DNA from: an uncultured delta proteobacterium | Lineage (GTDB): Bacteria; Desulfobacterota; Syntrophorhabdia; Syntrophorhabdales; WCHB1-27 | Length of the DNA stretch: 64,000 bases | Assembly (NCBI GenBank): GCA_963729685.1 | Contig: CAVSOX010000018.1 | Location: forward strand, 80,521 to 144,520 | Direction of reading: 5' to 3' | Shown here: in pieces, positions 14,663 to 58,931 of the stretch | Numbering within the stretch: the stretch's first letter is position 1 | Layout of the letters: the number at the start of each line of letters is the position of its first letter | The notes under the pieces: generated by a model | Told to the model about the DNA's origin: nothing | What the model saw: only the letters and a program-made list of their open reading frames with translations | Database searches by the model: none | Made by a program: the position numbers and the translations under genes

Positions 14663-14810
14663 TATCCGAACTTACCCGTCAGGTACTGTTCGGTCCTCTT
14701 GGCTATCCTTGGGGTTCAGCACCCCCTCCATGAGCAAGCTCATGGAGCCTCCCCGCTCACCCACGACTGCTTATCCGAACTTACCCGTCAGGTACTGTTC
14801 GGTCCTCTTG
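14663..14810. repeat. 39-nt direct duplication (14663-14701 and 14772-14810) of the pstB 3' end, flanking a REP-like element
   Basis: tatccgaacttacccgtcaggtactgttcggtcctcttg occurs twice, identical. On the minus strand it encodes KRTEQYLTGKFG plus a stop. Confidence 0.9.
14709..14760 (-). repeat. REP-like palindromic element, copy 1 (inverted relative to the nuo copies)
   Basis: The reverse complement reads gtgagcggggaggctccatgagcttgctcatggagggggtgctgaaccccaa, matching 37842-37893 and 39881-39933. Confidence 0.85.
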
Positions 14811-18499: not shown

Positions 18500-18529
18500 G
18501 ATACGCCTCCTTTGGGATTTCTCTTGCGT

Positions 18530-27084: not shown

Positions 27085-27086
27085 AA

Positions 27087-35103: not shown

Positions 35104-35174
35104 TTGACGGACGGAAAGAGGATGGGCGAAAATAGGCTTTCTCACATCGCTTCACGCTTGAGGGAATAAAAGAC

Positions 35175-35528
35175 GTGATCGAATATGTCGGGGTCCTGAT
35201 CATGGTCGGGTTTGCGGCGTTTATCGCCGTATTCATCGTCGGCGCGTCGTACATCCTGGGCAACAGGACCCGGGCAGCCGTGAAGCTCTCCCCTTACGAG
35301 TGCGGCATGGTGAGCAGGGGGCCGGCAAGGACGAGGATGACGATCCGCTACTATATCGTCGCCATGCTCTTTCTCGTTTTCGACCTGGAGATACTCTTTC
35401 TCTATCCCTGGGCGGTGACGACGAAGCGCCTCGGTCTCTTCGGTTTCGGTGAGATGGTCGTCTTCATGGCGATCCTCTTCATCGGCTACGTCTACGTATG
35501 GAAGAAAGGGGCCCTCGAATGGGAATAG
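35175..35528 (+). CDS. nuoA: NADH-quinone oxidoreductase subunit A
   Basis: ORF 35175..35528 (GTG). PYECG motif, three TM segments. Confidence 0.9.
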
Positions 35529-36019
35529 AGCGGAACGTCCTCGTCACTACCGTCGATGACGTGGTCAACTGGGCCAGGAAGAACTCCCTGTGGCCGGTAA
35601 CGTTCGGCCTCGCCTGCTGCGCCCTGGAGATGATCATCGCCACGTCCGCCACCCACGACATGGCGCGGTTCGGGGCCGAGGTCTTCAGACCTTCCCCGCG
35701 CCAGGCCGACCTGATGATCGTGGCGGGGACGGTGACACGGAAGATGGCGCCCGTGGTGCGGAGGATCTACGAGCAGATGCCCGAGCCCAAGTGGGTGATC
35801 GCTTACGGCGCGTGCGCCACGAGCGGCGGCATATTCAAGACATACAGCGTGGTGCAGGGCGTGGACCGGATCGTGCCGGTCGACGTCTACATCCCCGGAT
35901 GTCCTCCCCGGCCGGAGAGCCTCATCGCCGGCCTGATAAAGCTCCAGGAAAAGATCGGGAAAGAGAGCATGCTGGACGAAGGCAGAAGGCTCGTCACCAT
36001 GCCGGGAAGCAAGGCATGA
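35519..36019 (+). CDS. nuoB: NADH-quinone oxidoreductase subunit B
   Basis: ATG at 35519 within ORF 35498..36019. [26 protein letters not shown] (N2 cluster ligands). Confidence 0.9.
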
Positions 36020-36537
36020 GCGTGCCGGGTCCGACAATCGAGAAGCTCACCGCGACGTTCGGCGCCTCCCTCTCTTTCGAGCAGGCCGGCGGCAATCTTG
36101 TCGTCATCGCCGGCAAGGCCGTGCTGCGGGATGTCCTCCTTTTCCTGAAAACGGATGAAGGGCTGGGCTACACCATGATGACGGACCTTTTCGCCGTCGA
36201 TTGCTACGGCAGCGAACCCCGGTTCGAGGTGGTCTACCTCCTCAACTCCTTGCACCTGAAGGAGCGCCTCGTCGTCAAGGTGCGGGTGGCTGAGGGCGAG
36301 CCCGTCCCGACGGTGAGCGACCTGTGGCGGGCCGCGGACTGGCTTGAGCGGGAGGCTTTCGACATGTTCGGGGTGCGCTTCGAGAACCATCCCGACCTGC
36401 GCCGGATCCTCAGCGTGGAAGACTTCGAAGGCTACCCCTTGCGCAAGGATTTCCCCACCGAAGGCTACGGGTTCGAGGAGCCCTTCGTGGTCAAGCTCGA
36501 AGAAGAAGACTTACCGCCGAGGAAGGCTGATCGATAA
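36016..36537 (+). CDS. nuoC: NADH-quinone oxidoreductase subunit C
   Basis: ATG at 36016 (ATGA overlap). [24 protein letters not shown]. Confidence 0.9.
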
Positions 36538-37712
36538 TGGCTGAAGGCAAGAAATATATGACCATCAACATGGGTCCCCAGCACCCTGCCACGCACGGGG
36601 TGCTCAGGATCCTGCTTGAGTTGGACGGCGAGATCATCGTCAAGGCCACGCCCTTCATAGGGTACCTCCATCGCGGCGTGGAGAAGCTCGCCGAGGCCAG
36701 GACGTACCACCAGGCGCTCACCCTCACCGACAGGCTCGATTACACGAACGGCCTTTCGAACAACCTCGCTTACTGTCTCGCGGCCGAGAAGTTGTGCGGC
36801 TTGACAGTGCCGAAGCGCGGCCGGTATCTGCGCGTGATCCTCGCGGAATTGCAGCGGATCGCGGCCCACCTCATATGGATAGGCACGCACGCCCTCGACG
36901 TGGGGGCCATGACGCTGCTGTTCTATGCATTCCGCGAGCGCGAGACCATCCTGGACATCGTCGAGCACGTGACGGGCGCGCGGCTCACCCCGAGCTTCAT
37001 CAGGATAGGCGGCCTCGCCAAAGATATGCCGCCCGAGTTCGAGGGGATGGTCAAGGCCTTTGTCCGGGACTTCCCCCGGAGGGTGGACGAGTACGAGACG
37101 CTCCTCACGGATAATATCATCTGGCGCAAACGGACGACGAACGTTGCGCGCCTGTCGAAAGAAGACGCGATAAGCTACGGGGTGACGGGGCCGGTGCTCC
37201 GGGCCTCCGGCGTCTATTACGACGTGCGCAAGGCTTACCCCTATTCTTCGTACGAAGATTTCGAGTTCGAAGTCCCCATGGGTGAGAACGGCGACGTGTT
37301 CGACCGGTACGATGTGCGGGTGAGGGAGATGCGCCAGTCGAACCGGATCATCGCATCCGCCATCGACCGGCTGCCCGACGGGCCCATCAACGCGGACGCC
37401 CCCGCAATTGTGCCGCCGGAGAAGGACGAGGTGGAGCACGACATGGCCGCACTCATTCGCCATTTCAAGCTGATGGAAGAGGGGTTCCGCCCGCCCATCG
37501 GCGAGGCGTACGGGGCCGTGGAGTCGCCCAAGGGCGAGCTCGGTTTTTATCTCGTGAGCGACGGGACGAACAAGCCCCATCGGTTCCGCATACGCCCGCC
37601 TTCGTTTTTGAACCTCGGGGCCGTGCCGCGGATGATCGAGGGGCAGATGGTGGCGGATGTGATCGCGGCGATCGGGAGCGTCGACATCGTCCTCGGCGAG
37701 ATAGACAGGTAA
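36537..37712 (+). CDS. nuoD: NADH-quinone oxidoreductase subunit D
   Basis: ORF 36537..37712. NMGPQHPATHGVLR, GYLHRGVEKL, SVDIVLGEIDR. Confidence 0.9.
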   Translation: MAEGKKYMTINMGPQHPATHGVLRILLELDGEIIVKATPFIGYLHRGVEKLAEARTYHQALTLTDRLDYTNGLSNNLAYCLAAEKLCGLTVPKRGRYLRVILAELQRIAAHLIWIGTHALDVGAMTLLFYAFRERETILDIVEHVTGARLTPSFIRIGGLAKDMPPEFEGMVKAFVRDFPRRVDEYETLLTDNIIWRKRTTNVARLSKEDAISYGVTGPVLRASGVYYDVRKAYPYSSYEDFEFEVPMGENGDVFDRYDVRVREMRQSNRIIASAIDRLPDGPINADAPAIVPPEKDEVEHDMAALIRHFKLMEEGFRPPIGEAYGAVESPKGELGFYLVSDGTNKPHRFRIRPPSFLNLGAVPRMIEGQMVADVIAAIGSVDIVLGEIDR

Positions 37713-37714
37713 TG

Positions 37715-37811
37715 GCGAGCGTATGCGAAGCGCTGAGCGGGGAGGCCGGGGCACCCGCACCCGTTGGGTGTGGGTCGTAGCTTTGCTCATGGAGGGGGCG
37801 CTGAGCCCCAA
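37715..37811 (+). repeat. REP-like element, copy 2 (long form with a 32-nt internal insertion carrying its own hairpin)
   Basis: gcgagcgtatgcgaagcgctgagcggggaggc + cggggcacccgcacccgttgggtgtgggtcgt + agctttgctcatggagggggcgctgagccccaa. Confidence 0.8.
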
Positions 37812-37823
37812 TGAGTGCAGAAA

Positions 37824-37893
37824 GCGAGCGCATGCGAAGCGCTGAGCGGGGAGGCTCCATGAGCTTTGCTCATGGAGGGGGTGTTGAACCCCA
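37824..37893 (+). repeat. REP-like element, copy 3 (with the 18-nt leader gcgagcgcatgcgaagcg)
   Basis: gcgagcgcatgcgaagcgctgagcggggaggctccatgagctttgctcatggagggggtgttgaaccccaa. The stem is ctccatgagc/gctcatggag. Confidence 0.85.
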
Positions 37894-37915
37894 ATAATTG
37901 ACAGGTAGGAGACGC

Positions 37916-39871
37916 ATGGCAGGCATCCTATTTTCCGCATGGCAGGGAGAAGTGGTCGACAACAGGGGTAAGTCGGACGGCGATTACGCCGTCCCCCTGA
38001 AGCTCGCCGTCCCCGAAGAGTTCGCCTACGAGTCGATAAGGGCGTTCATGGGCTGGGACGGCCTGGTCCTCCGGGACCCGTCCGTCGACGTGGTCGAGAT
38101 GTGCATGCGGTATATAGAGGCGGTCCAGAACGAGTCGTGCGGCAGGTGCGTCCCCTGCCGTGTGGGCACCCGTATCATCCTCGACGTGATGAACAGGATA
38201 GCGGCAGGGCAGGGGAACAAGGCGGACCTCGACAGGATCGCGGGCCTCGCAGGGTATATCAGGGAAGGGTCGAAGTGCCAGATAGGGCAGACCGGCCTCA
38301 ACCCGCTCCTTTCGGCGCTCGAATATTTCAGGGAGGCCTTCGACGCTGCCGTGGAGGAGGGGGTGAAGGGGAGCACCGCCCGCTACCGCGTCTCCGTCAC
38401 CGCGCCGTGCATGAGCGCCTGCCCCACGAAGCTGCGAATACCGGAATATATCGAAGAGATCGCGGAAGAGATGCCCCAGGCCGCCCTCGCCACCATCAGG
38501 AAGGACACCTGCCTGGCGGGCACCCTCGGCCGGGTCTGCGTGAGGCCCTGCGAGTCGAATTGCAGGCGCGCGAACATGGACGAGGCGATCTCGATCAAAT
38601 ACCTGAAGCGGTTTGCCGCGGACTACGAGCTGGAGAAGCAGAGGACGCGCAAAAACCGGCCGGTCGCAGGGCCGCGCGAGCCGGGCAAGAAAGTCGCCGT
38701 CCTGGGCGCGGGCCCCGCGGGCTTGTCGGTGGCCTATTACCTCGCCCAGATGGGCTACGGCGTCACGATATTCGAGCGGCTGCCCGAGCCCGGCGGCATG
38801 GCTGCCGTGGGCATCCCCGACTATCGTCTCCCCAGGGCCGTACTCGGCGGAGAGGTCGATCTCGTGGCCGACTTAGGCGTCGAGATCAGGTACAACACCA
38901 TGGTCGGCAAAGACGTGGCCTTCTCCACCCTCACCGAGGAGTTCGACGCCGTCTTTATCGGCGTGGGCGCTCACCAGAGCACGCCCATGGGCGTCGACGG
39001 CGAAGACAAGGGCTATGCCGGCTTCATTTCGGGCGTCAGCTACCTGCTCGACGTCAACATGGGCAAAGACCCCTATCCTGAAGGGAAAAAGGTGGTCGTC
39101 GTGGGCGGCGGGAACGTCGCCATGGACTGCGTGCGCTCCTCGTTCCGGATCGGGAAGCCCGACGTCAACCTCGTCTACAGGAGGACAAAGGCGGAGATGC
39201 CGGCGGACCCCGTCGAGATACACGACGCGGAGGAAGAGGGCGTCAACTTCCACTACCTCTGCAACCCGAGCCGCATCATCGCGGAGGGCGGCAAGGTCGT
39301 GGCGGTCGAATGCATCAGGATGGAGCTGGGCGAGCCCGACAAGAGCGGCAGGAGAAGACCGGTGCCCGTGCCCGGCTCGGAGTTCGTGATAGAGACGGAC
39401 ATCCTCATCCCCGCCATAGGCCAGGCGGTCGACCTGTCGTTTCTGGACGAGCGGCTCGGGGTGCAGGCGACGAAGTGGCGCACCGTGCTGGTGAACCAGG
39501 AGACCTTCGAGACGTCCCGTCCCGGCGTATTTGCCGCCGGCGACTGCGAGACCGGCCCCGACGTGCTGGTGCGCGCCTGCGGGAACGGGAAGAAGGCGGC
39601 CTACCGGATCGACCAGTACCTGCGCGGCGAGGGGCGGGAGCCTTCCGAGAAGGAGCGCTTCGACGACTTTTTCGCGAAGGTAAAGGTATATAGGAAGGAC
39701 GAGGAGATAGGCATCGCGGGCGGGCAGCCGAGGCTGCACCTGCGCATGCTCGACCCTTCGATAAGGAAATGGACCTTCGACGAGGTGGAGGAAGGGTTCC
39801 GGACGGACGAGGCGATAAGTGAAGCCATGCGGTGCCTGCGCTGCTGGCGCATCGGCATGGTAGCGGTGTAG
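37916..39871 (+). CDS. fusion of the NuoF C-terminal 4Fe-4S domain with a GltD/NfnB-like FAD/NAD(P)H oxidoreductase (SfrB-like), occupying the nuoE/nuoF slot
   Basis: ATG at 37916 (GGAG upstream) in ORF 37898..39871. ESCGRCVPCRVGT...SKCQIGQTG; APCMSACP and RVCVRPCESNCRR; VAVLGAGPAGLS; VVVVGGGNVAMDC; FAAGDC. No NuoF FMN/NADH domain seen. Confidence 0.8.
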   Translation: MAGILFSAWQGEVVDNRGKSDGDYAVPLKLAVPEEFAYESIRAFMGWDGLVLRDPSVDVVEMCMRYIEAVQNESCGRCVPCRVGTRIILDVMNRIAAGQGNKADLDRIAGLAGYIREGSKCQIGQTGLNPLLSALEYFREAFDAAVEEGVKGSTARYRVSVTAPCMSACPTKLRIPEYIEEIAEEMPQAALATIRKDTCLAGTLGRVCVRPCESNCRRANMDEAISIKYLKRFAADYELEKQRTRKNRPVAGPREPGKKVAVLGAGPAGLSVAYYLAQMGYGVTIFERLPEPGGMAAVGIPDYRLPRAVLGGEVDLVADLGVEIRYNTMVGKDVAFSTLTEEFDAVFIGVGAHQSTPMGVDGEDKGYAGFISGVSYLLDVNMGKDPYPEGKKVVVVGGGNVAMDCVRSSFRIGKPDVNLVYRRTKAEMPADPVEIHDAEEEGVNFHYLCNPSRIIAEGGKVVAVECIRMELGEPDKSGRRRPVPVPGSEFVIETDILIPAIGQAVDLSFLDERLGVQATKWRTVLVNQETFETSRPGVFAAGDCETGPDVLVRACGNGKKAAYRIDQYLRGEGREPSEKERFDDFFAKVKVYRKDEEIGIAGGQPRLHLRMLDPSIRKWTFDEVEEGFRTDEAISEAMRCLRCWRIGMVAV

Positions 39872-39880
39872 AAGGCTTTT

Positions 39881-39933
39881 GTGAGCGGGGAGGCTCCATC
39901 AGCTTAGCTGATGGAGGGGGTGCTGAACCCCAA
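39881..39933 (+). repeat. REP-like element, copy 4
   Basis: gtgagcggggaggctccatcagcttagctgatggagggggtgctgaaccccaa. The stem is ctccatcagc/gctgatggag, differing from copy 3 by a paired G-to-C and C-to-G change. Confidence 0.85.
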
Positions 39934-39947
39934 TCTAGAGGGCGTAA

Positions 39948-42332
39948 ATGGTACGGTTGACGATAGACGGAAACGCGATAGAGACGGCCGAAGGCAGGAC
40001 GATCCTGGAGGCGGCCAGGGAGCACGGGATCTATATCCCCACCCTCTGCTACCACGCAAACCTCCTCTCCATCGGCTCCTGCCGTATCTGTCTCGTCGAG
40101 GTGGAGGGGTACGGCCTGCCCATGGTCTCATGCGCCACCGCCGTGCAGGAAGGCATGTCCGTCACCACGCAGTCTGCGAGGCTCGTCTCGATGAGGCGGG
40201 ATTATCTGAAGCTGATCCTCGCCTACCATCCCCTCGACTGCCCCATCTGCGACGCGGGCGGGGAGTGCGACCTCCAGGACCTGGTCTTCGAGCACGCGAT
40301 CGAGAAGGCCGACTATCAGGTGGCGCGCGAGCAGCGGATCGAGGGCTACGCGACACCCCTGATCAGGTACTTCGAAAACCGCTGCGTCCTCTGCCTGCGC
40401 TGCATCCGCGCGTGCAGGGAGATATCGGGCCGCATCGTCCTCGACCTCGTGGGGACCGGGATAGATGCCCGGATGGCGCCCACGAACGCGAAGAACTGCA
40501 TCTCCTGCGGCGAGTGCCTCTCCGTCTGCCCCGTGGGGGCCCTCACCGAGAACCTGAGCCCCGTGAAGGCGCGGCTGTGGCAGGTGGAGCGCCATCTCAC
40601 CACGTGCCCCCACTGCGGCTTCGGCTGCACCTTCGCCCTCGACGTGACGGCCAAGGGGTACGTGACGGACGTGATCCAGGACGTCAAGAACATGCCGAAC
40701 CGAGGCTCCCTGTGCGTCATGGGCAGGTTCGGGTACGACTTCGTGAACCATGAGGCCCGCATCCGGCGAAGGGACGGAACAACGGCGCCGGGATCGGCCT
40801 TGCCGAGGCCGCGTCCGTCGCGGTCGAGCGCATGACCGCCCTCGACAGGGAAGGGAAGACCATAGGGTTTGTCGTCTCCCCCAGGGCCACGAACGAAGAG
40901 ATCTTCATGCTGAAAGAGATCGCCGGCCGTCTCAAAAAGGTCGCTCTTCGCCACCTCCGGCTTCTACCACACGGGCAGGGTCCTGGAGGCATACCGCCGC
41001 ATGGGCCTCTCCTACCCCTACGAGTACGACCGGCTCCTCGATGCCGACCTGATCATCGTCGCGGGGGCCAACCTGCTCTCGAACAACCATCTGCTGGGCG
41101 ACAGGGTGCGGGATGCCTACAAGCTGCGGGGCAGCCGGATCATGGTGGTCGACCCTGCGCCGACGGCGCTCATCCGCCATCGCGGATGCGCACCTTTCGG
41201 TCCTCCCGGGGAGCGACGCCGCCCTCTTCGACGCCCTCAAGGGGGCCCTCCGGGGCCTCAAACGAAAAGGTCGGCTTCGATGCGGCCTGCGAGAGGTGCG
41301 GGATCGCAGCCGGACGACGCTCGGGCGCGCAGCCGCGCTTGTCAGCAAGGCGGCCAATATCGCGGTCATCTTCGGCTCCGGGATATCCGCGTGCGGCGAG
41401 AGCTTGATGAGCCTCCTCGACTTCTGCGCGGCCGCAGGATCGGATAAGAAAGGGCTCGTCATGCCCGTCGCAAGGGCGGCCAACGCGGTCGGCGCCGCCT
41501 CCATCCTCGGCGCCGCCCTCGCGCCCGATGAGCTTATGGCAAACCCGGACGTCAAAGGCCTCTTCTTCTATGAGGAGGACCCCTTCCACTACATGAGCGG
41601 GGAAGCGGTCATGAGTCTCCTTCAGGGGAAGGAGTTCGTCCTTGCCGCCGATGCCTTTCCAACCGGTGTGACGATTCGTGCCGACCTGGTCGTGCCCACG
41701 GGCGTCTTCACCGAGAAAGAAGGCACATTCTTTGCGGGCGACGGCGGTGTCAGGTACCTCTCGATGGCGGTCGACTGCGGCCAGGGCCCGGTACGCGGGC
41801 TTTGCCTTCCTCTCAGGCGTGCTCGCGGGCTTAGGCGGCGCGTCGTTTTCCGCCCCCCATGACGTGACCGCGTACATGCGGTCAAAGGGGCTGATCCGGC
41901 GCGTCGACGGCAGGGAAGAGCCGGGGTCCGACAGCGACCGCGCGGCGGGACCGGCATCATCCGGCGGCACGGCCGTCATCCCTTCGGCAGGCGGCTACAT
42001 CCTGATCGTGAGGGACGTATTCAGCAACCATCACCTGGCGGGCGCCGAGGCCTATTCGAAAGGGGTCTCGACCGTCTATCGCCACCCGGGTTTTCCGGTC
42101 TCCGAGGATAAGCTCTTTTTTTCGGCGGCCGACGCCGCAGGCCATGGGTCTCGCGGAAGGCGACGTGGTCCGACTTACATCGAAAAGCGGCGCCCTCGAC
42201 AAGCCGCTCTCCATAAAGGAGGGCTTGAGGCCCGGCGTGCTCGAATATATCGTGTTCAGGGACCGGCCGGATGTGCTCGGCCTCATGGAAGCTCCGGCGA
42301 AATGGATCGAGGTAAAGGTGGAGAAAGGGTGA
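39948..42332 (+). CDS. nuoG: NuoG / SfrA-like (molybdopterin-oxidoreductase-fold) Fe-S subunit; at least 5 frameshifts in this assembly
   Basis: ORFs 39948..40835, 40832..41407, 41001..41447, 41113..41862, 41678..42337 and 42144..42332 read consecutively. 2Fe-2S CYHANLLSIGSCRICLVEV, HPLDCPICDAGGEC, CVLCLRCIRAC, CISCGECLSVCP, CPHCGFGCTF, then TIGFVVSPRATNEE, DLIIVAGANL, VLAADAFPT, MGLAEGDVVRLTS. Breaks lie near 40777, 40938, 41170, 41788 and 42138, possibly more at 41265-41330. Confidence 0.8.
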
Positions 42333-42333
42333 G

Positions 42334-43339
42334 ATGATGGAGACGCTATTCTTTCCCATAGAAGCCCTGGTGAAGACCATCGTCGTCGTCTCGGTCCTCA
42401 TGCTCTTCGTTGCCTACCTGACCCTGGCGGAGAGAAAGGTGCTGGGCAGGCTCCAGGTCCGGTTCGGGCCGAACAGGGTCGGTCCTTACGGGCTCCTCCA
42501 GCCCATAGCCGACGGCATAAAGTCGTTCACGAAGGAAGATATCATCCCGGCGAATGCGGACAAGCCCCTCTTCGTCCTCGCGCCCATGATCGCCCTGTTT
42601 TCCGCCCTCTCCCTGTTCGCGGTCATCCCCTTCGGCGGCACGATCCACGTTTTCGGGCGGGCCGTCAAGCTGGTCATCGGGGACGTCGATATAGGCCTGC
42701 TCTACGTCTTTGCCTTTGCCACCCTCGGCGAGTACGGCATCGTCCTGGGCGGCTGGTCCTCGGGCAATAAATACGGCGTCCTCGGCTCTTTGCGGGCCGC
42801 GGCGCAGATGATAAGCTACGAGGTCTCCCTCGGCCTCATCGTGATGGGCACGCTCATCCTCGCGGGTTCCTTGAGGCTGACGGATATCGTCGAGGCGCAG
42901 AGGCAGCATGTGGTTCGTGGTCTACCAGCCCTTCGCGTTCTTTCTCTACCTCGTTGCGGGCCTCGCCGAGATCAACAGGACGCCCTTCGACATGCCCGAG
43001 GCGGAGAGCGAGCTGGCGTGCGGCTTCAATATCGAGTACAGCAGCATGAAATTCGCCCTTTTCTTCATGGCGGAATACGCCCATATGGTGGCTGTCGCGG
43101 CCCTTGCGACCACGCTTTTCCTGGGCGGCTGGCTCGGACCCTTTTCTTCAACTCTGCCCGGCCTCGGCCCTTTATGGTTCTTTATCAAGGTGTGCGTGCT
43201 GGTATTCTTTTTCATCTGGGAGAGGGGCACGTTCCCACGGCTCCGGTACGACCAGATCATGCAGTTCGGCTGGAAGGTGCTCTTCCCGCTCGCCCTGGCG
43301 AATGTGGTCGTCACGGCGCTCGTGGTGGCGTTGAGGTGA
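42334..43339 (+). CDS. nuoH: NADH-quinone oxidoreductase subunit H, frameshifted near 42906
   Basis: ORF 42334..43350 ([31 protein letters not shown]) continues in ORF 42908..43339 ([18 protein letters not shown]). Confidence 0.85.
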
Positions 43340-43346
43340 TGAGCGT

Positions 43347-43760
43347 ATGATCATACCCCTTCTGAAAGGTCTTCGTCTGACGCTGTCGCGCTTCTTTTCG
43401 CGGCCCATCACCATCCAGTACCCGGAAGAGAAGCGCACCCCCCCGCCCAGGTGGAGGGGCATGCACTATTTCCGGAAAGACGCATCCGGCAACACCACCT
43501 GCGTTGCCTGCGGCCTCTGCGTCGCCGTCTGCCCCTCCCGGTGCATCTCCCTGGAGATAGGCGAGGCCGAGGACGGGCGGAGGTACCCGAGGCACTACGA
43601 GATAGACGAGCTCCGGTGCATCTTCTGCGGGTATTGCCAGGAGGCGTGCCCGGTCAACGCCATCAAGCTCGGAGGCGGCTTCGAATACGTGAAATACCAG
43701 AGGTCCGATTTCATCCTGACGACGGAGAAGCTGCTTGCCATGTACGAGGGGAAGGAATGA
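43347..43760 (+). CDS. nuoI: NADH-quinone oxidoreductase subunit I
   Basis: Two ferredoxin motifs, CVACGLCVAVCP and CIFCGYCQEACP. Confidence 0.9.
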   Translation: MIIPLLKGLRLTLSRFFSRPITIQYPEEKRTPPPRWRGMHYFRKDASGNTTCVACGLCVAVCPSRCISLEIGEAEDGRRYPRHYEIDELRCIFCGYCQEACPVNAIKLGGGFEYVKYQRSDFILTTEKLLAMYEGKE

Positions 43761-44292
43761 GCGACATCGGTTTCATCAATCCCTTGTTCCAGTGGGCCGT
43801 CTTCCTCGTCGCCGGCCTCGCTTTGCCTCGTCGCGTCCCTCATGATGGTGACGCGCCGGAACCCGATACACAGCGCCCTCTGGCTGATCGTCGCCTTTTT
43901 CTCCCTGGCGGTCATCTACCTGACCCTGAACGCCCAGTTCATCGCGGTGGCACAGGTCATCGTCTACTCGGGCGCCATCATGATGCTCATCATCTTCGTC
44001 ATCATGCTGATCCACCTGGAAAGCGAGTTCGTCCGGAAGAGGAAGCTGTCCGGGCCGAAGGCCATCGGCGCGTTCATTACCGCGATCCTCTTCCTGGAGA
44101 TTGCGGCGGTTGTCCTCTCATTCGGCGGCAGGACGGCCAAGGCAGGGGCGGGGGCGAGCGCTGACGGGCAGCGTGGCCGAGGTGGGGGCCTCCCTCTACG
44201 GCAAATACCTCTTCCCCTTCGAGATCGCCTCCATCCTGCTTTTGATCGGCATCGTGGGGGCCGTGGTGCTCGCCCGGCGGGGGAAGGATTAG
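43757..44292 (+). CDS. nuoJ: NADH-quinone oxidoreductase subunit J, frameshifted near 43825 and 44155
   Basis: [22 protein letters not shown] (ATGA overlap with nuoI), then [20 protein letters not shown]...[18 protein letters not shown], then [26 protein letters not shown], in three frames. Confidence 0.8.
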
Positions 44293-44300
44293 GAGAGCCT

Positions 44301-44612
44301 ATGCTGCACGGGATACCGACCGGTTTCTATTTCGCGCTCTCCGGCGCACTTTTCACCATAGGTGCGATCGGCGTCATCACCAGGCGGAACGCGATCGTCG
44401 TCTTCATGTGCATCGAGCTTATGCTGAACGGCGTCAACCTGACTTTCATCGCGGCGGGGAACATGCTCAATTCGATAGACGGCATGATCTTCGTCTTTTT
44501 CATCATGACGGTGGCGGCCGCGGAGGCCGCGATAGGACTCGCCATATTCGTGCTCCTCTTCAGGCTTAAAGGGACCGTCAACGTGGACGAGATCAATCTG
44601 CTCAAGGGTTAG
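44301..44612 (+). CDS. nuoK: NADH-quinone oxidoreductase subunit K
   Basis: ATG at 44301 gives [47 protein letters not shown]. Confidence 0.9.
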
Positions 44613-46595
44613 GTGATGGCTGATTATATCTGGCTCATACCGGTATTTCCCGCAATCGGCTTCCTCGTCAACGGCTTTATTGGGCGCAAGCTGCCGAAGG
44701 CCCTTGTCTCGTGGATCGCCTGCCTCGCCCTGTTTGCGTCGTTCGTGGTCTCGGCCCTGATCTTCATCGAGTTCTTGAAGCTCCCCCCGGAGGCGAGGCT
44801 TTTCGAGAAGAACGTCTACACCTGGATCGCATCCGGTGAGTTCGCGGCCAGCGTCGGTTTCAGGATCGATTCGCTCTCCATCGTCATGTGCCTCGTCGTC
44901 TCGGGCGTCGGCTTCCTCATCCACGTCTACTCCGCCGGCTACATGCACGACGATGAAGGCTTCGCCCGGTATTTCACCTACCTGAACCTGTTCGTCTTCA
45001 TGATGCTCACCCTCGTGACGGCGAATAACCTGCTCCTCATGTTTGTCGGCTGGGAAGGGGTGGGCCTGTGCTCCTACCTGCTCATCGGTTTCTGGTACAA
45101 GAAGGACAGCGCGGCCAACGCGGGGAAGAAGGCGTTCATCGTCAACAGGATAGGCGACTTCGGCTTTCTCCTCGGCATCTTCTTCCTGCTCACGAGCCTC
45201 GGCAGCCACGGCGTCTGGACCCTCGACTTCGGCGAGCTGCAGAAGAACGCCCATCTCCTGACAGGCGCCGCGGCAACGGTGATCACCCTCTTGTTCTTCG
45301 TGGGCGCGACGGGGAAATCCGCGCAGCTCCCCCTCTATGTCTGGCTCCCCGACGCCATGGAAGGCCCCACGCCCGTCAGCTCGCTGATCCACGCGGCCAC
45401 GATGGTCACGGCAGGGGTCTACATGATCGCGAGGCTCAATTTCCTCTATGTCATGGCCCCCACCACCATGTTCGTCGTCACATTGGTCGGCGTGCTCACC
45501 GCCCTGTTCGCGGCGACCATCGGCTGCGCCCAGTATGACATCAAGAGGGTGCTCGCCTATTCGACGGTAAGCCAGTTGGGCTACATGTTCGTCGGCGTCG
45601 GCGCGGGCGCTTTCGCGGCGGGCATCTTCCACCTCATGACCCATGCCTTCTTCAAGGGGCTCCTCTTCCTCGCCGCGGGCAGCGTGATGCACGCCATGAG
45701 CGGCGAGCTCGACATGAGGAAGATGGGGGGCTTGCGGAAGCGGACGCCGGTCACCTACTGGACCTTTCTGGCCGGCTGCATCGCCATCGCCGGCGTGCCC
45801 GGCTTCTCCGGGTTTTTCAGCAAGGACGAGATCATGTGGAAGGTCTTCGCCAACTACGGCGGCAGCCTCGTCTTCTGGGGGATCGGGGCGCTGACCGCGG
45901 GGCTCACCGCCTTCTACATGTTCAGGATGTTCTTCACGACCTTCCACGGCGAATGCCGGGCGCCGGAAGAGGTGAAGCACCATATCCACGAGTCCCCGCC
46001 CGTCATGACCATACCGCTCGTCATCCTGGCCGTGCTCTCGGTGGTGGGCGGCTGGGTCGGCGTGCCCCACATACTGGGAGGGGCGAACAGGTTCGAGCAG
46101 TGGCTCGAGCCGGTCTTCGGCCCCGGGAAAGAGGCAGCGGCGCCTGCGCTCAACCTCGTCACCCCCGCCTTCGCGGAAGGCGCGCGCGGCGCATGCGTCG
46201 TCACCCGAGGGCATGCTCATGGCCGCCGCCGTGATCATCGCCTTCGCGGGCATCTTCATCGCCTACTACTTCTACATCAAGCACCCGGAGATCCCCGTCA
46301 ACTTCGTGCGGGCCTTTCCGGGGGTCTTCAGGACGGTGAACAACAAGTACTACGTGGACGAGCTCTACCAGGCGGTCTTCGTGCGGGGGCTTTTCGCCCT
46401 CGGCCGCTTTTTCAAAGGGGTGGTCGACGAGGTCGCTCATCGACGGCACAATAAACGGGCTCGCGTGGCTCATTCGGCGGCATCGGCAGTCTCATCAGGC
46501 TCTTCCAGACGGGATACGTGCAGGGCTATGCCTTCGCCATGATCATCGGCGCGATCGCCGTGCTCGGCTATCTTATTATGAAGGTTATCTTGTAG
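44613..46595 (+). CDS. nuoL: NADH-quinone oxidoreductase subunit L; C-terminal region frameshifted near 46185, 46437 and 46480
   Basis: ORF 44613..46454 (GTG at 44613 or ATG at 44616) with WEGVGLCSYLLIGFW and LIHAATMVTAGVY. The tail is recovered from ORF 46213..46542 and a third frame ending GYAFAMIIGAIAVLGYLIMKVIL, with stop at 46593-46595. Confidence 0.85.
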
Positions 46596-46634
46596 GTGCT
46601 ATGAACAGCGTCTGAATTTCCGATCTTAAGCACG

Positions 46635-48215
46635 TTGATCTACCTTCCCCTCCTCGGCGCGGTGCTGCTCCTCTTCGTGAACAGGAGACACGAGCTGTTC
46701 ATCAAGGTCTTCACCCTCGTCTTCACCCTCGTCGAGTTCGGCGTCTCCCTGCCCCTCTTCTTCCTCTTCAACGAGAAGGCGCAGGGCATGCAGTTCGTCG
46801 AAAAGGCGGCGTGGTTCCCCGAATGGGGCATGAGCTATTTTCTGGGCATCGACGGCATCAGCCTGCTCCTCGTGCTCCTCACCACGTTCCTCACGGTCCT
46901 TTGCGTGCTCGTCTCCTGGAAGGCGATAGAGGCCAGGGTGAAGGAATACTACATCACCTTCCTCTTTCTGGAGACGGCCATGATCGGGACCTTGTGCGCC
47001 CTCGACCTGGTCCTCTTCTATATCTTCTGGGAGCTGATGCTCATCCCCATGTACCTCCTCATCGGCATCTGGGGCGGCCCGAGGAGGATATACGCGGCCA
47101 TCAAGTTCTTCCTCTTCACCATGGTCGGGAGCGTCCTGATGCTGCTCGCGATCTTCGTCCTCTATTTCCATTACGCGAAGACGACCGGCGTCGCCACCTT
47201 CAACGTCCTCGACCTCTACCACGCGACCGTGCCTGTCGGCCTCCAGTACTGGCTGTTTGCCGCCTTCGCCCTCTCTTTCGCCATCAAGGTGCCCATGTTC
47301 CCGGTCCACACGTGGCTCCCCGACGCGCATACCGAGGCGCCCACCGCGGGCAGCGTCATCCTCGCAGGCGTGCTCCTGAAGATGGGGACCTACGGGTTCT
47401 TGCGGTTCGCGATACCGCTCTTTCCGAAGGCAGCGATCGACGCGATCCCCCTGATCTCGATCCTCGCCGTCATCGGCATCATCTACGGCGCGATCGTGAG
47501 CATGATGCAGCCCGACCTGAAGCGGCTCATCGCCTTCTCCAGCGTGAGCCACCTGGGCTACGTGATGCTCGGCATGTTCGCGTTCAATATGCAGGGCCTC
47601 CAGGGGTCCATCTACCAGATGCTCAACCACGGCATCAGCACGGGCGGGCTGTTTCTTTTGGTCGGCATGGTCTACGAGAGGCGCCACACGAGGATGATCG
47701 CCGATTTCGGCGGGCTGTCGGCCTCGATGCCCCTCTTCGCCATCTTTTTCATGATCGTGACCCTCTCCTCCATCGCCTTACCCGGCACGAACGGCTTCGT
47801 CGGCGAATTCCTCATACTCCTCGGCGCCTTCAAGTCGGTCAAGCTGTACGGCATCCTCGGCACCATAGGGGTGGTGCTGGGCGCGGTCTACATGCTCTGG
47901 ATGTTCCAGCGGGTCATGTTCGGCGAGATCACGAAGGAGGAGAACAGGAAGGTGAAGGACCTGGGCGGAAGAGAGGTGCTGATCCTCTGCTCCGTGGTCT
48001 TCTTCATCGTCCTCATGGGCGTCTATCCCCGGATGTTCTTCAAGAAGATGGATACGTCCGTCGAGGGGTTCCTGAAGTTCGTGAAAGAGAGGAACGCCTA
48101 TTACGAGACCATGGAAAAGGCGCCGGCCGCCCATGCCGGCCGCTACGGGTTGTCGGGCGCCGCCGCCGCGGCCTATCCGGCTGATCCCGGCCGGCGGTCG
48201 CGAGAGGTCGAATGA
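46635..48215 (+). CDS. nuoM: NADH-quinone oxidoreductase subunit M
   Basis: ORF 46635..48215 (TTG). An ATG at 46601 (MNSV) is one base out of frame, so the true N-terminus may be MNS..FPILSTLIYLPLLG with a further indel near 46610. Confidence 0.9.
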   Translation: MIYLPLLGAVLLLFVNRRHELFIKVFTLVFTLVEFGVSLPLFFLFNEKAQGMQFVEKAAWFPEWGMSYFLGIDGISLLLVLLTTFLTVLCVLVSWKAIEARVKEYYITFLFLETAMIGTLCALDLVLFYIFWELMLIPMYLLIGIWGGPRRIYAAIKFFLFTMVGSVLMLLAIFVLYFHYAKTTGVATFNVLDLYHATVPVGLQYWLFAAFALSFAIKVPMFPVHTWLPDAHTEAPTAGSVILAGVLLKMGTYGFLRFAIPLFPKAAIDAIPLISILAVIGIIYGAIVSMMQPDLKRLIAFSSVSHLGYVMLGMFAFNMQGLQGSIYQMLNHGISTGGLFLLVGMVYERRHTRMIADFGGLSASMPLFAIFFMIVTLSSIALPGTNGFVGEFLILLGAFKSVKLYGILGTIGVVLGAVYMLWMFQRVMFGEITKEENRKVKDLGGREVLILCSVVFFIVLMGVYPRMFFKKMDTSVEGFLKFVKERNAYYETMEKAPAAHAGRYGLSGAAAAAYPADPGRRSREVE

Positions 48216-49674
48216 TGAACATTGCGCTGTCCGCTTTCAGATTTCGAATGGATCCTCCCCGAGATCACCGTCACCGTCTTCGGGCTCCTCATCCTCCTCG
48301 TGGACGCGTTCAGGAGAAAGAAGACACCGTCCGTCTCAGGGTGCGTGCTCACCCTCGTAGGGAGCGGCACTCGCCTTCTTTTTCGCGATGCACCTCTGGG
48401 GCGTGCGGACAAGCCTCTTTGCCGGCCTCTACCTGATCGACGGCTTCGGCACCTTCTTCAAGGGCATATTCCTCCTGATCCTCTTCATGGTCGCCGTGAT
48501 CTCCCTCCGCTACACGAGGCGCGAGGAGATCGTCGCGGGCGAGTACTATGCGCTCCTCCTTTTCGCCGCCCTCGGCATGATGGTGATGGTCTCGTCGACG
48601 AGCTTCGTGACCATCTTCATCGGCCTGGAGGTGATGTCGCTCTCCATCTACATCCTCTGCGGGCTCCTGAAAGGGCAGGCCCGCGCCGTCGAATCGTCCC
48701 TCAAGTATTTCCTCCTCGGCGCCTTTGCCACCGCCTTTTTCCTTTACGGCATAGCCCTGGTCTACGCATCATCCGGGGCCATCGACATCAGGATGGTGCG
48801 CATCGTGGCCTCGGCGAGGAACCTGGGCCATGACCCGGTCTTCCTGACGGGTATGGCGCTCCTCATCGTCGGCTTCGGCTTCAAGACCGCGTCGGTCCCC
48901 TTCCATATGTGGACGCCCGACGTCTACGAAGGCGCGCCGACGCCGGTCACGGTCTTCATGGCGACGGGCGTGAAGGCGGCCGCCTTCGCCGCCTTCTTGC
49001 GGGTCTTCTACACCGCCTTCTATCCCTTCATCGGCAGTTGGTCGAGCGTCTTGTGGTTCATCGCCGTGCTCACCATGTGCGTGGGGAACATCACCGCCCT
49101 GGTGCAGAACAACATGAAGCGCCTCCTCGCCTATTCGAGCATCGCCCACGCGGGCTATATCCTGGTCGCCTTCGTCACGGGCGATAAGATCCTCTCGTCG
49201 AGCATCCTCTACTATCTGCTCGCCTACACCTTCATGAACCTGGGGGCCTTCACCGTGGTGATCCTCCTCGGGAGGAAAGGCGAGGCCCATGAGGATATAG
49301 ACAGCTACGCGGGCCTGGCCGGCCGCCACCCCTTCGTCAGCCTCTGCATGACCATCTTCCTTCTGTCCTTGACGGGCATCCCGCCGCTCGCGGGCTTCAC
49401 CGGAAAGTTCTACATCTTCAGCGACGCCATAAAGGGGCAGTACTACTGGCTCGCCGTCATAGGCGTCCTCAACAGCGCCGTTGCCGCTTACTACTACCTG
49501 CGCGTGCTCATGTACATGTACTTCAAGGAGCCGGTAAAGGAGCTGGGCGGGGTAGACATGTCGCCCGGCTACGTGGTGGTGATGCTGGTGAGCGTGGGCA
49601 TGCTGTTCTATCTGGGGATGTGGCCGAGGGAGGTGCTGCTGCTGGCCCAAAAGTCGGTCGCCATATTCCAGTAG
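48212..49674 (+). CDS. nuoN: NADH-quinone oxidoreductase subunit N, frameshifted near 48230 and 48363
   Basis: ATG at 48212 (ATGA overlap with nuoM) gives MMNIAL, then LSDFEWILPEITVTVFGLLILLVDAF (ORF 48222 frame), then ALAFFFAMHLWGV... (ORF 48388..49674). Confidence 0.85.
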
Positions 49675-50162: not shown

Positions 50163-51176
50163 CTAATCCACCAAATCTTTATGTATCCAACCGATCTTTC
50201 CCGAACTTAATTGCACTTTATACCACATTCCTTTTTCGTCACTTCTCATTAAGATATCGCCTTTCTTAACTCTTGTTATTACTTTGCTATTTGTCCCCGG
50301 TTCCGACCTAATATTGCATGATGACCGAACAACCCTCAGGTATTTGGGAGGGTCAACTCTTGCTTCGCCTTCGACTGATTGGCTCTTTTCTTGCGAGGAC
50401 GTCTTTAGTTCTTCTCCGTTAGGAGCGATATCGGGTGCCGATTGGAGGAGTGCGATGAGATTCTCAGTAATGCGGCGAGGTAACTTCCAATCGACTATTA
50501 TGGGACCATTCATAAATCCTTCTGTTTCGGAGAACGTAATTGGCTGGTCGTCCACAACACGGTTACCTGTCGCTACGCTGAAAACTATAAAATTTACAGT
50601 CATTGTGCGTGTTCGGGTCTCTGTCGGAGTACACGGCCCGGTTTTCTCTTGAACCTGAAGTTGCGCCACACCTCCAAGAGATATTTTTTTGTTAACCGGT
50701 ACGTAAGGCTTTGAAGTAACAGAGTCAGCCGTTAACCTCGCTATTACAACATGAGACGCGTTCATTCGGGTTGCGACATCGAGAATACGTTTAATATTGC
50801 CAGCCGGGAAAGACAGGTTTCTTATCCTACCCTTAGCACCGTACTCAACAACTGGCAACGATCCAATTGACTTAGACTCTTCAACAACAGTCTTATCATC
50901 TAATACGATAACTCCCTTCTCTCTCCATCCTTTGAACCCCTCAAGAAGCCATTCGTAAAACGTGCTTGCCATAACTTCTTTCACTAAGGGTTGAACGTCC
51001 TGAAAAGGCAACGAAACAAAAACAATCAGATTTAAAGCAGCATCCGGGCGTCCTTTTGTTGCTGGCACCGTTGTGCAGGACGAGAAAAACATAAATAGGC
51101 AAAAGGCAAGGGTGTAGGCCCATACGGTGCTTCGGCAGGCACAAAATAGCCTTATGTTAAGTAGTTTTTGCTTCAT
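50163..51176 (-). CDS. lipoprotein with a C-terminal bacterial SH3 domain
   Basis: ORF 50163..51176. Lipobox-like FMFFSSC. C-terminus RVVRSSCNIRSEPGTNSKVITRVKKGDILMRSDEKGMWYKVQLSSGKIGWIHKDLV fits SH3b. 4-nt overlap with the upstream gene. Confidence 0.7.
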   Translation of the reverse strand: MKQKLLNIRLFCACRSTVWAYTLAFCLFMFFSSCTTVPATKGRPDAALNLIVFVSLPFQDVQPLVKEVMASTFYEWLLEGFKGWREKGVIVLDDKTVVEESKSIGSLPVVEYGAKGRIRNLSFPAGNIKRILDVATRMNASHVVIARLTADSVTSKPYVPVNKKISLGGVAQLQVQEKTGPCTPTETRTRTMTVNFIVFSVATGNRVVDDQPITFSETEGFMNGPIIVDWKLPRRITENLIALLQSAPDIAPNGEELKTSSQEKSQSVEGEARVDPPKYLRVVRSSCNIRSEPGTNSKVITRVKKGDILMRSDEKGMWYKVQLSSGKIGWIHKDLVD

Positions 51177-52702
51177 TTGCCTTGCGCCTTATTCTTTATT
51201 TCATCCGTAATCTTAGAATCTACTATATTCTTCGATAGGTCTGCGGCTGCATTTCCTACACGTTCCGGATTACTTAAAAATGTATCCACGTACTTCGGTG
51301 GTCGACCAACTATTCCTTCCGAACCAGCTACCCCCTCCAAAACCTTCCCTGTTCCCTTGTCCACAGCTTCGTCTAATGCTGCCTGTGCACCGGCCCTAAC
51401 CAGGCCACCCTTTAACCCATGTTCGCTGACCTCCACGGCAGCATTGCTTAGATCCTTAGTAGCCTTCCAGGGTATCTCAGCCCCCGGGACGACTTTTGAA
51501 ATAGTATCGCCTGCAATATAGCTTCCCTGTCTTATGTTATCAACCGACTTATTCAGTTGATCAAGACCTTGGACCTGGAGACCTGTAGCCGTACTGATAT
51601 TTTCATTCGCTGCTTTCATGTACGCCTGGGCATCTTTGAAGTATCGATCTGCATCTTTTGCATTGCCTGCGCTTAGTGCGTCTTTCGCACTTTGTATATA
51701 CTTAGCAGCCTGATTTTGTGATTGCACACCCATGTCATATACTTTCTGCAAGTCTTGGGCTCCCGTAATGTTTGTCTTGTAAACCCATCCTCCCCACCCG
51801 GATGTGTCTTTCGGGCCTGCGGGTAAAGGCGCCTTGGCAAGTTTTTCCCAGGCGTTAAGCTGCTCCATCGAAACTGCTGATGAAGCAGCTGGTGAAGATG
51901 TTTTCCCTGACCCTGCTTGAGCAGCCTGGGTCTGGCCACGTTGCTGCTCGGCTTTCTGCTGGGCCTGTTGCTGTTGAACACTCGTAGCCGATGAATGTTG
52001 TTGCTGGTCAGGTTTTAGACCCGCACTCTGTTGCGGCTGTTGCGTCTTTTGCTTGGCCTGTTGCTTCTGGGTCTGTTGCTGTTGGTTACGTTCTTGCTGG
52101 GCGCGCTGTTGCTGCTCAAACTGTTCTTGGCGGCGTTGCTGCTCGGCCTTCTGCTGAGCCTGCTGCTGTTGTCTTTGCTGCTCAGCCTTCTGCTGAGCCT
52201 GTTGCTGGGCTCTCTGCTGAGCTTGCTGCTGGGCCTGTTGCTGTTGTCTTTGCTGCTCAGCCTTCTGCTGTGCCTTCTGCTGCTGTGCCTGTTGCTTCTC
52301 TCGTTGCTGCTCAGCCTTCTGCTGTGCCCTCTGCTGCTGGGCCTGTTGCTGACGTTGCTGCTCAGCCCTCTGCTGCTGGGCCTGTTGTGCCCTCTGCTGC
52401 TGGGCCTGTTGTTCCCTCTGCTGCTGGGCCTGTTGCTGACGTTGCTGCTCAGCCCTCTGCTGCTGGGCCTGTTGTTCCCTCTGCTGCTCAGCCCTCTGCT
52501 GCTGGGCCTGTTGTTCCCTCTGCTGCTCAGCCCTCTGCTGCTGGGCCTGTTGTTCCCTCTGCTGCTGGGCCTGTTGCTGACGTTGCTGCTCAGCCCTCTG
52601 CTGCTGGGCCTGTTGTTCCCTCTGCCCTGCATGTAGGTAAGGAGTTTGAAAAGCGCAGGCCACAGTCAGCAGAATTGCCACAACCACGATTCTCGTTGAC
52701 AT
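51173..52702 (-). CDS. secreted glutamine-rich tandem-repeat protein with an unrecognised C-terminal domain of about 230 aa
   Basis: ORF 51173..52708 (GTG). ATG at 52702 has GAGGGG upstream. Signal peptide MSTRIVVVAILLTVACAFQTPYLHA, then about 200 aa of QQAQQQRAEQQRE-type 13-aa repeats, then a non-repetitive domain. Confidence 0.7.
   Translation of the reverse strand: MSTRIVVVAILLTVACAFQTPYLHAGQREQQAQQQRAEQQRQQQAQQQREQQAQQQRAEQQREQQAQQQRAEQQREQQAQQQRAEQQRQQQAQQQREQQAQQQRAQQAQQQRAEQQRQQQAQQQRAQQKAEQQREKQQAQQQKAQQKAEQQRQQQQAQQQAQQRAQQQAQQKAEQQRQQQQAQQKAEQQRRQEQFEQQQRAQQERNQQQQTQKQQAKQKTQQPQQSAGLKPDQQQHSSATSVQQQQAQQKAEQQRGQTQAAQAGSGKTSSPAASSAVSMEQLNAWEKLAKAPLPAGPKDTSGWGGWVYKTNITGAQDLQKVYDMGVQSQNQAAKYIQSAKDALSAGNAKDADRYFKDAQAYMKAANENISTATGLQVQGLDQLNKSVDNIRQGSYIAGDTISKVVPGAEIPWKATKDLSNAAVEVSEHGLKGGLVRAGAQAALDEAVDKGTGKVLEGVAGSEGIVGRPPKYVDTFLSNPERVGNAAADLSKNIVDSKITDEIKNKAQGK
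52030..52630. repeat. coding tandem repeat array, 39-bp unit with nested longer periodicity
   Basis: ctgctgctcagccctctgctgctgggcctgttgttccct occurs back to back at 52442-52480 (first base t), 52481-52519 and 52520-52558. Diverged copies run across about 600 bp. Confidence 0.85.
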
Positions 52703-58928: not shown

Positions 58929-58931
58929 GAT

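Follow-up and report, generated by a model that had tools for sequence, protein, structure and literature searches.

An NADPH-type flavoprotein and a NuoG-like subunit as the candidate input module of complex I in an uncultured Syntrophorhabdales bacterium

Which donor serves complex I-like enzymes that lack NuoEF, or NuoEFG altogether, is acknowledged to be an open question (PMC3144371; PMC11238625). The question is raised here by a nuo operon on a metagenomic contig of an uncultured delta proteobacterium of the Syntrophorhabdales (GenBank assembly GCA_963729685.1, contig CAVSOX010000018.1, positions 80,521 to 144,520, forward strand), a stretch of 64 kb that is called the window in what follows. 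Between nuoD and nuoH this operon carries two genes, one for a 651-aa flavoprotein (X) and one for a NuoG-like Fe-S subunit (G), so that the donor module is encoded within the operon itself, an arrangement conserved across three orders of anaerobes. With moderate confidence, we read the operon as specifying a 13-subunit complex I in which the input module, in place of NuoEFG, is a pair of subunits that derive from an NADP-type formate dehydrogenase (FDH), and which would operate as a reversible proton-translocating NADPH:menaquinone oxidoreductase. The genes are given below, with coordinates taken from a listing of open reading frames (ORFs) and from tblastn searches with orthologous proteins; L001, L003 and similar numbers denote loci of related genomes.

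35175..35528, plus strand: nuoA, product 84% identical to NuoA of L001
35519..36019, plus strand: nuoB, 255 bits on model NF005012 (cut-off 116); N2 ligands present as a tandem CC, GACA and GCPP
36016..36537, plus strand: nuoC, with an ATGA overlap with nuoB
36537..37712, plus strand: nuoD, 564 bits on model TIGR01962 (cut-off 459); PATHGV His and DRLDY Tyr present, NiFe cysteines absent
37916..39871, plus strand: X, the 651-aa flavoprotein, a NuoF C-terminal N3-type [4Fe-4S] domain followed by a permuted GltD/StnC-type module
39948..42332, plus strand: G, a NuoG-like or degenerate FdhA-like Fe-S subunit, interrupted in the window by about 13 indels whose lengths are not divisible by 3
42334..43339, plus strand: nuoH, with a 1-nt insertion near 42906
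43347..43760, plus strand: nuoI, with two CxxCxxCxxxCP motifs
43757..44292, plus strand: nuoJ, with insertions near 43820 and 44156
44301..44612, plus strand: nuoK, product 90% identical to that of L001
44613..46595, plus strand: nuoL, above the NCBIfam cut-off; insertions near 46184, 46431 and 46473
46601..48215 (start approximate), plus strand: nuoM, with small indels near the start
48212..49674, plus strand: nuoN, with insertions near 48233 and 48368

The order nuoA-B-C-D, X, G, nuoH-I-J-K-L-M-N, all on the plus strand, is the one given in a preliminary description of this DNA, and the several ATGA junctions mentioned there are found at B/C, I/J and M/N. In addition, nuoC and nuoD overlap by 1 nt, a gap of 1 nt separates G from nuoH in the window, and the coding junctions of the orthologous operons are tight or overlapping. 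The coordinates previously assigned to X also hold, but its length was overstated by one, the 652 aa being 651 aa plus the stop. Promoter and terminator scans of the region returned nothing above chance; the candidate promoter upstream of nuoA, TTGACG-18-GAAAAT at 35104..35133 (plus strand), is weak, with 1 site found against 3.4 expected from shuffled sequences.

The eleven core genes nuoA, B, C, D, H, I, J, K, L, M and N form one cluster and make up a complex I core. The translations also reveal a quinone-reducing Q-module, as NuoB carries the ligands of cluster N2 and NuoD retains the His/Tyr quinone site and a C-terminal GEIDR while lacking the cysteines that bind NiFe. The scores of NuoB, NuoD and NuoL, together with the N2 and quinone-site residues, therefore identify the Q- and P-modules as those of a quinone-reducing complex I.

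No comparable trace exists of the parts that would oxidise NADH. A six-frame motif scan of the 64-kb window detected neither the flavin mononucleotide (FMN) loop of NuoF nor the 2Fe-2S motif of NuoE, and tblastn queries with an authentic NuoF FMN domain and the NuoE-like protein of L043 gave a best E of 0.3 in the same stretch, which bears out the earlier remark that a NuoE-type protein and the FMN part of NuoF are missing. An FMN-loop scan of 82 related loci found the NuoF loop within 10 kb in two, L027 and L043 only, in both cases in a separate divergent FDH-type cluster, and in none of the 82 was nuoE or nuoF seen inside the operon. The components of an NADH-oxidising N-module, that is the 2Fe-2S protein NuoE and the FMN/NADH domain of NuoF, are absent from the window and from 80 of the 82 loci, and the operon likewise contains no core of the Bfu type, in which BfuB and BfuC are NuoF/NuoE-like and hold FMN.

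The gene that follows nuoD instead encodes a protein of composite architecture. The preliminary description saw in it the C-terminal 4Fe-4S region of NuoF fused to a GltD/NfnB-type module, and the Pfam domains of 37916-39871 agree: NADH_4Fe-4S at aa 62-144 (87 bits), Fer4_20 at 153-242 and Pyr_redox_2 at 258-556, with no match in X to Complex1_51K, the FMN-binding domain whose presence would have contradicted that assignment. Searches of the PDB matched aa ~30-148 to the C-terminal N3 domain of NuoF, HydB and HoxF, and aa 156-644 to ‘NfnA’ of Thermococcus NfnABC, its equivalent in Caldicellulosiruptor NfnABC, and StnC of Sporomusa. Over the flavin module the matches to NfnABC ‘NfnA’ and StnC reach E values of 1e-116 to 1e-106 with 40-43% identity; NfnB and GltD score below them, and Foldseek, run with an AlphaFold2 model of X, ranks the relatives as the sequence search does. 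An alignment shows that the NADPH-type loop of X, VVVVGGGNVAMD...VYRRTKAEMPA, is common to the NADPH-binding modules of NfnABC ‘NfnA’ and StnC, the Rossmann motif being of the NADPH-type GGGNVAMD...YRR, and that the C-terminal EAMRCLRC lines up residue by residue with the RCxxC of the StnC/NfnABC modules. This RCxxC resembles the opening half of the GltD Fe-S motif, relocated to the C-terminus. X accordingly displays the marks of the GltD-like module of Stn/NfnABC, namely two [4Fe-4S] clusters, flavin adenine dinucleotide (FAD), a GxGxxA loop and the C-terminal RCxxC.

These features are conserved throughout the family. Invariant in 52 X orthologues are C75, C78, C81 and C121, of the N3 type; C165, C169, C199, C208, C212 and C216, in the Fer4_20 region; and C640 and C643, along with the FAD and NADPH glycine motifs, GGGNVAMD and YRR. 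X moreover aligns collinearly, at 45% identity, with aa 269-801 of a complete NuoF(FMN+SLBB+4Fe-4S)::GltD fusion of 829 aa from L043, and it looks like such a fusion minus the FMN/NADH part. The source label often attached to the matches of X is ‘formate dehydrogenase (NADP+) beta subunit’, and it is with the alpha subunits of such enzymes that the second gene of the slot has to be compared.

The first 295 aa of G are intact in the window and contain the motifs of a 2Fe-2S cluster, a His-Cys3 4Fe-4S cluster, two further 4Fe-4S clusters and an N7-type 4Fe-4S cluster. The window reads GRVLEAY, with Leu-Glu (40983-40988) at the position of the molybdenum ligand, selenocysteine (Sec) or Cys followed by His; in the L003 orthologue, which is intact at 800 aa, Leu-Glu stands opposite Cys386-His387 of FdsA. 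The catalytic Sec/Cys-His site for the molybdenum or tungsten bis-pyranopterin guanine dinucleotide cofactor (Mo/W-bisPGD) is thus missing from the G of the window and of L003, and because Leu-Glu replaces Sec/Cys-His, G is predicted to be a non-catalytic Fe-S wire of the NuoG kind. The best PDB match of the L003 protein is the N-terminal half of Rhodobacter FdsA, and G scores 245 bits against FDH alpha subunits and 143-180 bits against the canonical NuoGs of the PDB. The molybdopterin domains of the L003 protein score weakly, and an end-to-end alignment of the window-type G with FdhA of L068 gives 29% identity overall and ~55% over the Fe-S domain, while the pterin domain of G shows large deletions. 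Judged from its sequence, G is best described as a degenerate FdsA/FdhA-type alpha subunit; on the NuoG model a catalytic FdhA even outscores it, with 409 against 316 bits. Other accounts of the window gene were considered and rejected: a functional formate dehydrogenase and a selenocysteine codon both founder on the Leu-Glu at the active-site position, and programmed frameshifting on the scatter of 1-nt insertions that share no recurrent motif.

The placement of X could be a peculiarity of one genome, and its recurrence was followed in 80 genome loci of related metagenome-assembled genomes (MAGs). X lies no more than 400 nt downstream of nuoD in every one of the 76 loci that include nuoD, in three orders, and the order nuoD-X is therefore not due to chance. 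Gaps of 5-10 nt separate X from its neighbours in the orthologues, where it stands between nuoD and either G or nuoH; a G-sized gene intervenes between X and nuoH in 63 of the 76 loci showing nuoH, and in 13 X is followed directly by nuoH. Among the matches listed, the closest X proteins (64-90% identity) come from MAGs of the Syntrophorhabdales, Syntrophorhabdaceae, Syntrophales and Syntrophobacterales.

The partner of X is more variable than X itself. In L062 (11954-14698), L068 (6961-9663) and L081 (~7086) the slot holds a catalytic FdhA alpha subunit. That of L068 has 900 aa, exceeds the TIGR01591 cut-off of 666 with 918 bits, aligns with the whole of FdsA (E 8e-233) and has the active site HCARLCHAS, while L062 and L081 read HCARL-TGA-HSS and then have a hairpin with the apical loop GGUCU, which we take to resemble the selenocysteine insertion element (SECIS) of E. 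coli fdhF. In nine of the nine loci that have no in-slot G and enough flanking sequence, a Sec-FdhA with a NuoG-like N-terminal domain is encoded on the same strand; in eight it lies a short way ahead of nuoA, and in the ninth, L032, it follows nuoN (the loci are L059, with the gene at 4409-7081, L032, L046, L053, L060, L069, L071, L075 and L077). Nine further loci combine a degenerate in-slot G with an upstream Sec-FdhA. Finally, upstream of the nuo operon in L043 (632-6300, minus strand) and L027 (870-7000, minus strand), the divergent cluster already mentioned encodes a NuoE-like protein, the 829-aa NuoF(FMN+SLBB+4Fe-4S)::GltD fusion and a Sec-FdhA, and may possibly represent the ancestor type of X.

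As X stays in place while its partner is a catalytic FdhA, whether in the slot or beside the operon, X belongs with the nuo genes and with an FdhA-type partner. The simplest reading is that X and G go back to an NADP-type FdhB/FdhA pair that came to occupy the nuoEFG slot, with the Syntrophorhabdales losing the FDH site at a later stage; the comparisons also suggest that formate-linked variants of complex I exist among the relatives. The series of in-slot catalytic FdhA, edge FdhA and degenerate G could then be seen as living intermediates for the acquisition of an N-module from a soluble dehydrogenase. A bolder version of this history, which we advance tentatively and would not yet bet on, holds that a soluble NADP-type FDH (X plus FdhA) was recruited independently onto the 11-subunit core, that the forms with catalytic FdhA are pumping formate/NADPH:menaquinone oxidoreductases, and that the form in the Syntrophorhabdales has decayed to an NADPH-linked complex I. 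If so, its origin would parallel that of NuoEFG, catalytic FdhA (Sec/Cys) would have been kept in the Syntrophobacterales and many Syntrophales, and the complex run in reverse would be a cytoplasmic machine with which syntrophs make formate or NADPH from menaquinol.

How would such a complex work? In complex I the N3-type domain is the part of NuoF that faces NuoG. We infer an electron chain from NADPH via FAD, X, G and NuoI to NuoB because X shares both the StnC module and this N3-type domain. NADPH would be bound by X, as an FdhB/SfrB-like protein, at the GltD/StnC-type FAD site, and electrons would leave one at a time through the two [4Fe-4S] clusters of X to the N3-type [4Fe-4S] in the NuoF C-terminal domain, which would dock on the N-terminal Fe-S domain of G as NuoF does on NuoG. 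G, having no Sec/Cys ligand, would act as a pure wire with clusters of the N1b, N4 and N5 types, passing electrons to NuoI and on to N2 in NuoB, from which they would reach the canonical NuoD/NuoH quinone site; NuoH and NuoJ-N would couple the reduction of menaquinone (MK) to proton translocation. The net reaction, NADPH + MK + nH+(in) <-> NADP+ + MKH2 + nH+(out), would be reversible, and in a syntroph it possibly runs backwards, with the proton-motive force driving reverse electron transport from menaquinol to NADP+. A precedent for the first steps is offered by the cryo-electron microscopy structure of StnABC (PMC10482914). There NADPH binds to the GltD-like module of StnC, whose FAD is non-bifurcating, and two [4Fe-4S] clusters relay the electrons in a single line to a NuoG-like chain in which the FDH-like domain is inactive.

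The preliminary description had proposed that the Q-module and membrane arm are coupled here to an NAD(P)H/FAD module and not to NuoEF, and this proposal gains support from the position of X after nuoD in three orders, the lack of nuoE and nuoF in the operons, the homology of the NADPH entry, the invariance of the N3-type ligands and C-terminal CxxC in 52 orthologues, and the catalytic FdhA partners of the relatives. By the established redox potentials, NADPH has more driving force than NADH for the reduction of menaquinone, and it would be the better thermodynamic match for menaquinone-linked pumping. The operon may offer a concrete case of NADPH, and in the relatives formate, as the substrate of a proton-pumping complex I. 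In the reverse direction it would provide a syntroph with a route from the menaquinol pool to NADPH or formate, the step of reverse electron transport that is limiting when syntrophs oxidise fatty and aromatic acids.

One would nevertheless ask whether X is the sole point of entry. It could be a second or auxiliary one, beside another donor, for instance ferredoxin acting on G or NuoI, or NuoEF-like proteins encoded elsewhere, and perhaps confurcate or branch NADPH plus ferredoxin to menaquinone. GltD/NfnB-type flavins do bifurcate in NfnAB (PMC10482914), several donors are thought possible for the eleven-subunit complexes (PMC11238625), and a ‘Nuo-Bfu’ that confurcates ferredoxin and NADH was proposed by Schut et al. 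to make menaquinone-linked pumping feasible (PMC9304861); clusters of NuoE, NuoF::GltD and FdhA, moreover, adjoin the operon in L027 and L043. Such an auxiliary role is rather unlikely, however, as StnC and NfnABC ‘NfnA’, the closest structural relatives of X, are of the non-bifurcating type, the sequence of X gives no sign of another route by which electrons could leave the FAD, and an FMN subunit of the BfuB/BfuC type is absent from the operon and from 80 of the 82 loci. Bifurcation of the Bfu type in particular is unsupported in an operon without an FMN subunit.

A slightly poorer prospect is that X and G constitute a separate, soluble NADPH oxidoreductase like SfrAB that shares a transcript, and nothing more, with a ferredoxin-dependent complex I-like enzyme of 11 subunits. 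The source label of X as a formate dehydrogenase (NADP+) beta subunit would suit a separate enzyme, as would the greater nearness of G to FDH alpha subunits than to canonical NuoGs in the scores given above, and eleven-subunit complexes without NuoG are known (PMC3144371). What speaks against it is the conservation of the site: in all 76 loci X occupies precisely the E/F slot, with the gaps of 5-10 nt noted in the orthologues, and keeps that slot even where the FdhA-type partner lies outside the operon. The loss of catalysis in G, paralleled in NuoG, likewise suits a wire better than an enzyme.

The condition of the window sequence has also to be considered. G runs through at least four reading frames, a defect recognised in part by the preliminary description, which reported frameshifts in G but missed those in nuoH, J, L, M and N. 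Relative to L003, with 91% DNA identity, there are ~22-25 indels that are not multiples of 3 in 39938-49674, mostly 1-nt insertions in the window, and none inside nuoA-D or X, and this uneven spread would be in keeping with decay. Yet dN/dS (nonsynonymous over synonymous rates) against L003 stays within 0.05-0.37 in every gene, no in-frame stop occurs in the L003 frame, and the nuo genes are all intact in L003 and L002. Genes of unrelated function are split across frames as well, namely livH/M-like permeases (window 4480-7199, minus strand), a hutI-like amidohydrolase (11725-13003, plus strand) and a second ADP-forming acyl-CoA synthetase (58283-60498, minus strand). The source is a 483-kb metagenomic contig, and on the related L001, a 306-kb metagenome contig, nuoL (16597-18578) is split into pieces of 540 aa and 124 aa, an indel artefact of the same kind. 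Because the orthologues are intact, dN/dS is low, in-frame stops are lacking, unrelated genes are split and the source is metagenomic, the frameshifts look like patchy assembly errors that extend beyond the nuo operon. The dead operon against which the preliminary description had cautioned, with G, H, J, L, M and N as real pseudogenes decaying in this genome, is for these reasons very improbable and was rejected as the principal reading.

Several points weigh against the NADPH-linked complex I proposed here. Frameshifts affect six of the 13 operon genes in the window. The L003 G matches the NuoG model TIGR01973 from end to end but scores 316 bits, below the cut-off of 470. The AlphaFold2 monomer of X is mediocre, with a mean pLDDT of 67 and values below 50 in the Fe-S and C-terminal regions. 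Among 240 listed homologue rows, which overlap, there is no cultured organism, and canonical nuoEF could be encoded elsewhere in the genome, outside the 64-kb window. Lastly, what the sequences show is gene content, conserved domains and ligands, synteny and homology to NADPH-entry modules; that X and G assemble on the core, which quinone is reduced and which way the electrons move are proposals, and a specificity for NADPH over NADH is indicated by motif similarity alone.

The flanks of the operon are unrelated to it, with a Lon-like protease, an ADP-forming acyl-CoA synthetase and a class A penicillin-binding protein upstream and an SH3 protein downstream. Two adjacent tRNA genes (27010-27159, minus strand) lie upstream of the Lon-like protease gene, and a UbiE/COQ5-family methyltransferase is encoded at 25567-26403 (plus strand); the latter is possibly a demethylmenaquinone methyltransferase, which would fit a menaquinone-using organism. 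Beyond nuoN, the G+C content at 50-57 kb falls to 0.47-0.54 against ~0.60, and this stretch may be an acquired island. A c-di-GMP-I riboswitch (52780-52879, minus strand; 41 bits, gathering score 35) precedes there a 511-aa ORF at 51173-52708 (minus strand) without a Pfam match, followed by the gene for an SH3-domain protein at 50163-51176 (minus strand). X itself is bracketed by copies of a dispersed REP-like repeat, of which the following were located:

37735..37895, plus strand: two REP-like hairpin repeats (37735-37812 and 37844-37895), filling the gap between nuoD and X
39883..39934, plus strand: REP-like hairpin repeat in the gap between X and G
14708..14755, minus strand: further copy of the REP-like repeat

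The unit of ~52 nt consists of a 10-bp hairpin and a GGGGU..ACCCC hairpin, and two copies are told apart by a compensatory swap of G:C to C:G. No Rfam family matches the repeats, which bracket X in the window genome only and are absent from L003 with its 91% DNA identity.

It remains to place the operon among known systems. SfrAB of Geobacter and the NADP-dependent FdhAB of Moorella are stand-alone soluble two-gene enzymes, in which the beta subunit combines Fe-S clusters with a GltD-like NADPH/FAD module and the alpha subunit a NuoG-like N-terminus with a molybdopterin domain. X presumably shares the architecture of SfrB and of Moorella FdhB, in line with the source names. The two-gene module is common to both sides, and relatives of the operon (L062, L068 and L081) still carry catalytic Sec/Cys FdhA partners, but here the pair is not free-standing: X and G fill the nuoEFG slot, flanked by nuoD and nuoH, and the Sec/Cys-His site of G is gone. 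With canonical 14-subunit complex I the operon shares the 11 subunits of the Q- and P-modules in their usual order, N2, N6a/b and the quinone-site residues, a NuoG-type Fe-S subunit in the G slot and the domain of the N3-type cluster. It differs in having no NuoE and no FMN/NADH domain of NuoF, with FAD instead in a GltD-type module that adds two [4Fe-4S] clusters and NADPH as the predicted substrate.

Variants of complex I described so far comprise an 11-subunit form, the 12-subunit form of Campylobacter and the FpoF type (PMC3144371), and NUO12-14 and mbx-like operons have been reported in which a GltD-like protein takes the place of NuoI (PMC4758237); surveys of clades have required all 14 subunits (PMC4453560). 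Neither these variants nor the predicted Nuo-Bfu include an FMN-less NuoF-FeS::GltD subunit, or an FdhA, in the slot. No description of such a subunit in a nuo slot was found in the open-access literature, FDH inside a nuo operon not having been searched for, and an earlier description may exist. StnABC and NfnABC (PDB 8oh5, 9bov, 9n5u) have the same GltD-like NADPH/FAD module, with 40-43% identity and the permuted C-terminal CxxC, and in them too it feeds a NuoG-like cluster chain linearly beside an inactive FDH-like domain. In those soluble enzymes, however, the NuoG-like polypeptide itself houses the module as an insertion, alongside NuoE/F-like bifurcating subunits, whereas here the module is a separate subunit, fused to the C-terminal domain of NuoF, in the operon of a membrane-bound complex I.

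The 12-subunit complex I of Campylobacter and Helicobacter likewise keeps NuoG, has NuoE and NuoF replaced within the slot and uses a donor other than NADH, but its slot proteins are two, small and unrelated, and its donor is flavodoxin (PMC3144371); the 651-aa Fe-S flavoprotein with its nucleotide site sets the present operon apart in architecture. In Fpo, the F420H2 dehydrogenase, a single flavoprotein also replaces the N-module on an 11-subunit core, although FpoF is an F420 flavoprotein of the FrhB type, there is no NuoG-type subunit, and the host lineage is archaeal. The ‘Nuo-Bfu’ of Schut et al. 2022 (PMC9304861) has in common with the operon that a menaquinone-linked complex I of anaerobes carries a non-canonical E-F-G input module, and the thermodynamic rationale is the same, in that a lower-potential donor makes pumping with menaquinone feasible. 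There, the FMN-containing, NuoF/E-like BfuB and BfuC are kept, whereas X has neither, its place in the same slot being that of a GltD-type flavoprotein joined to what looks like the last part of NuoF.

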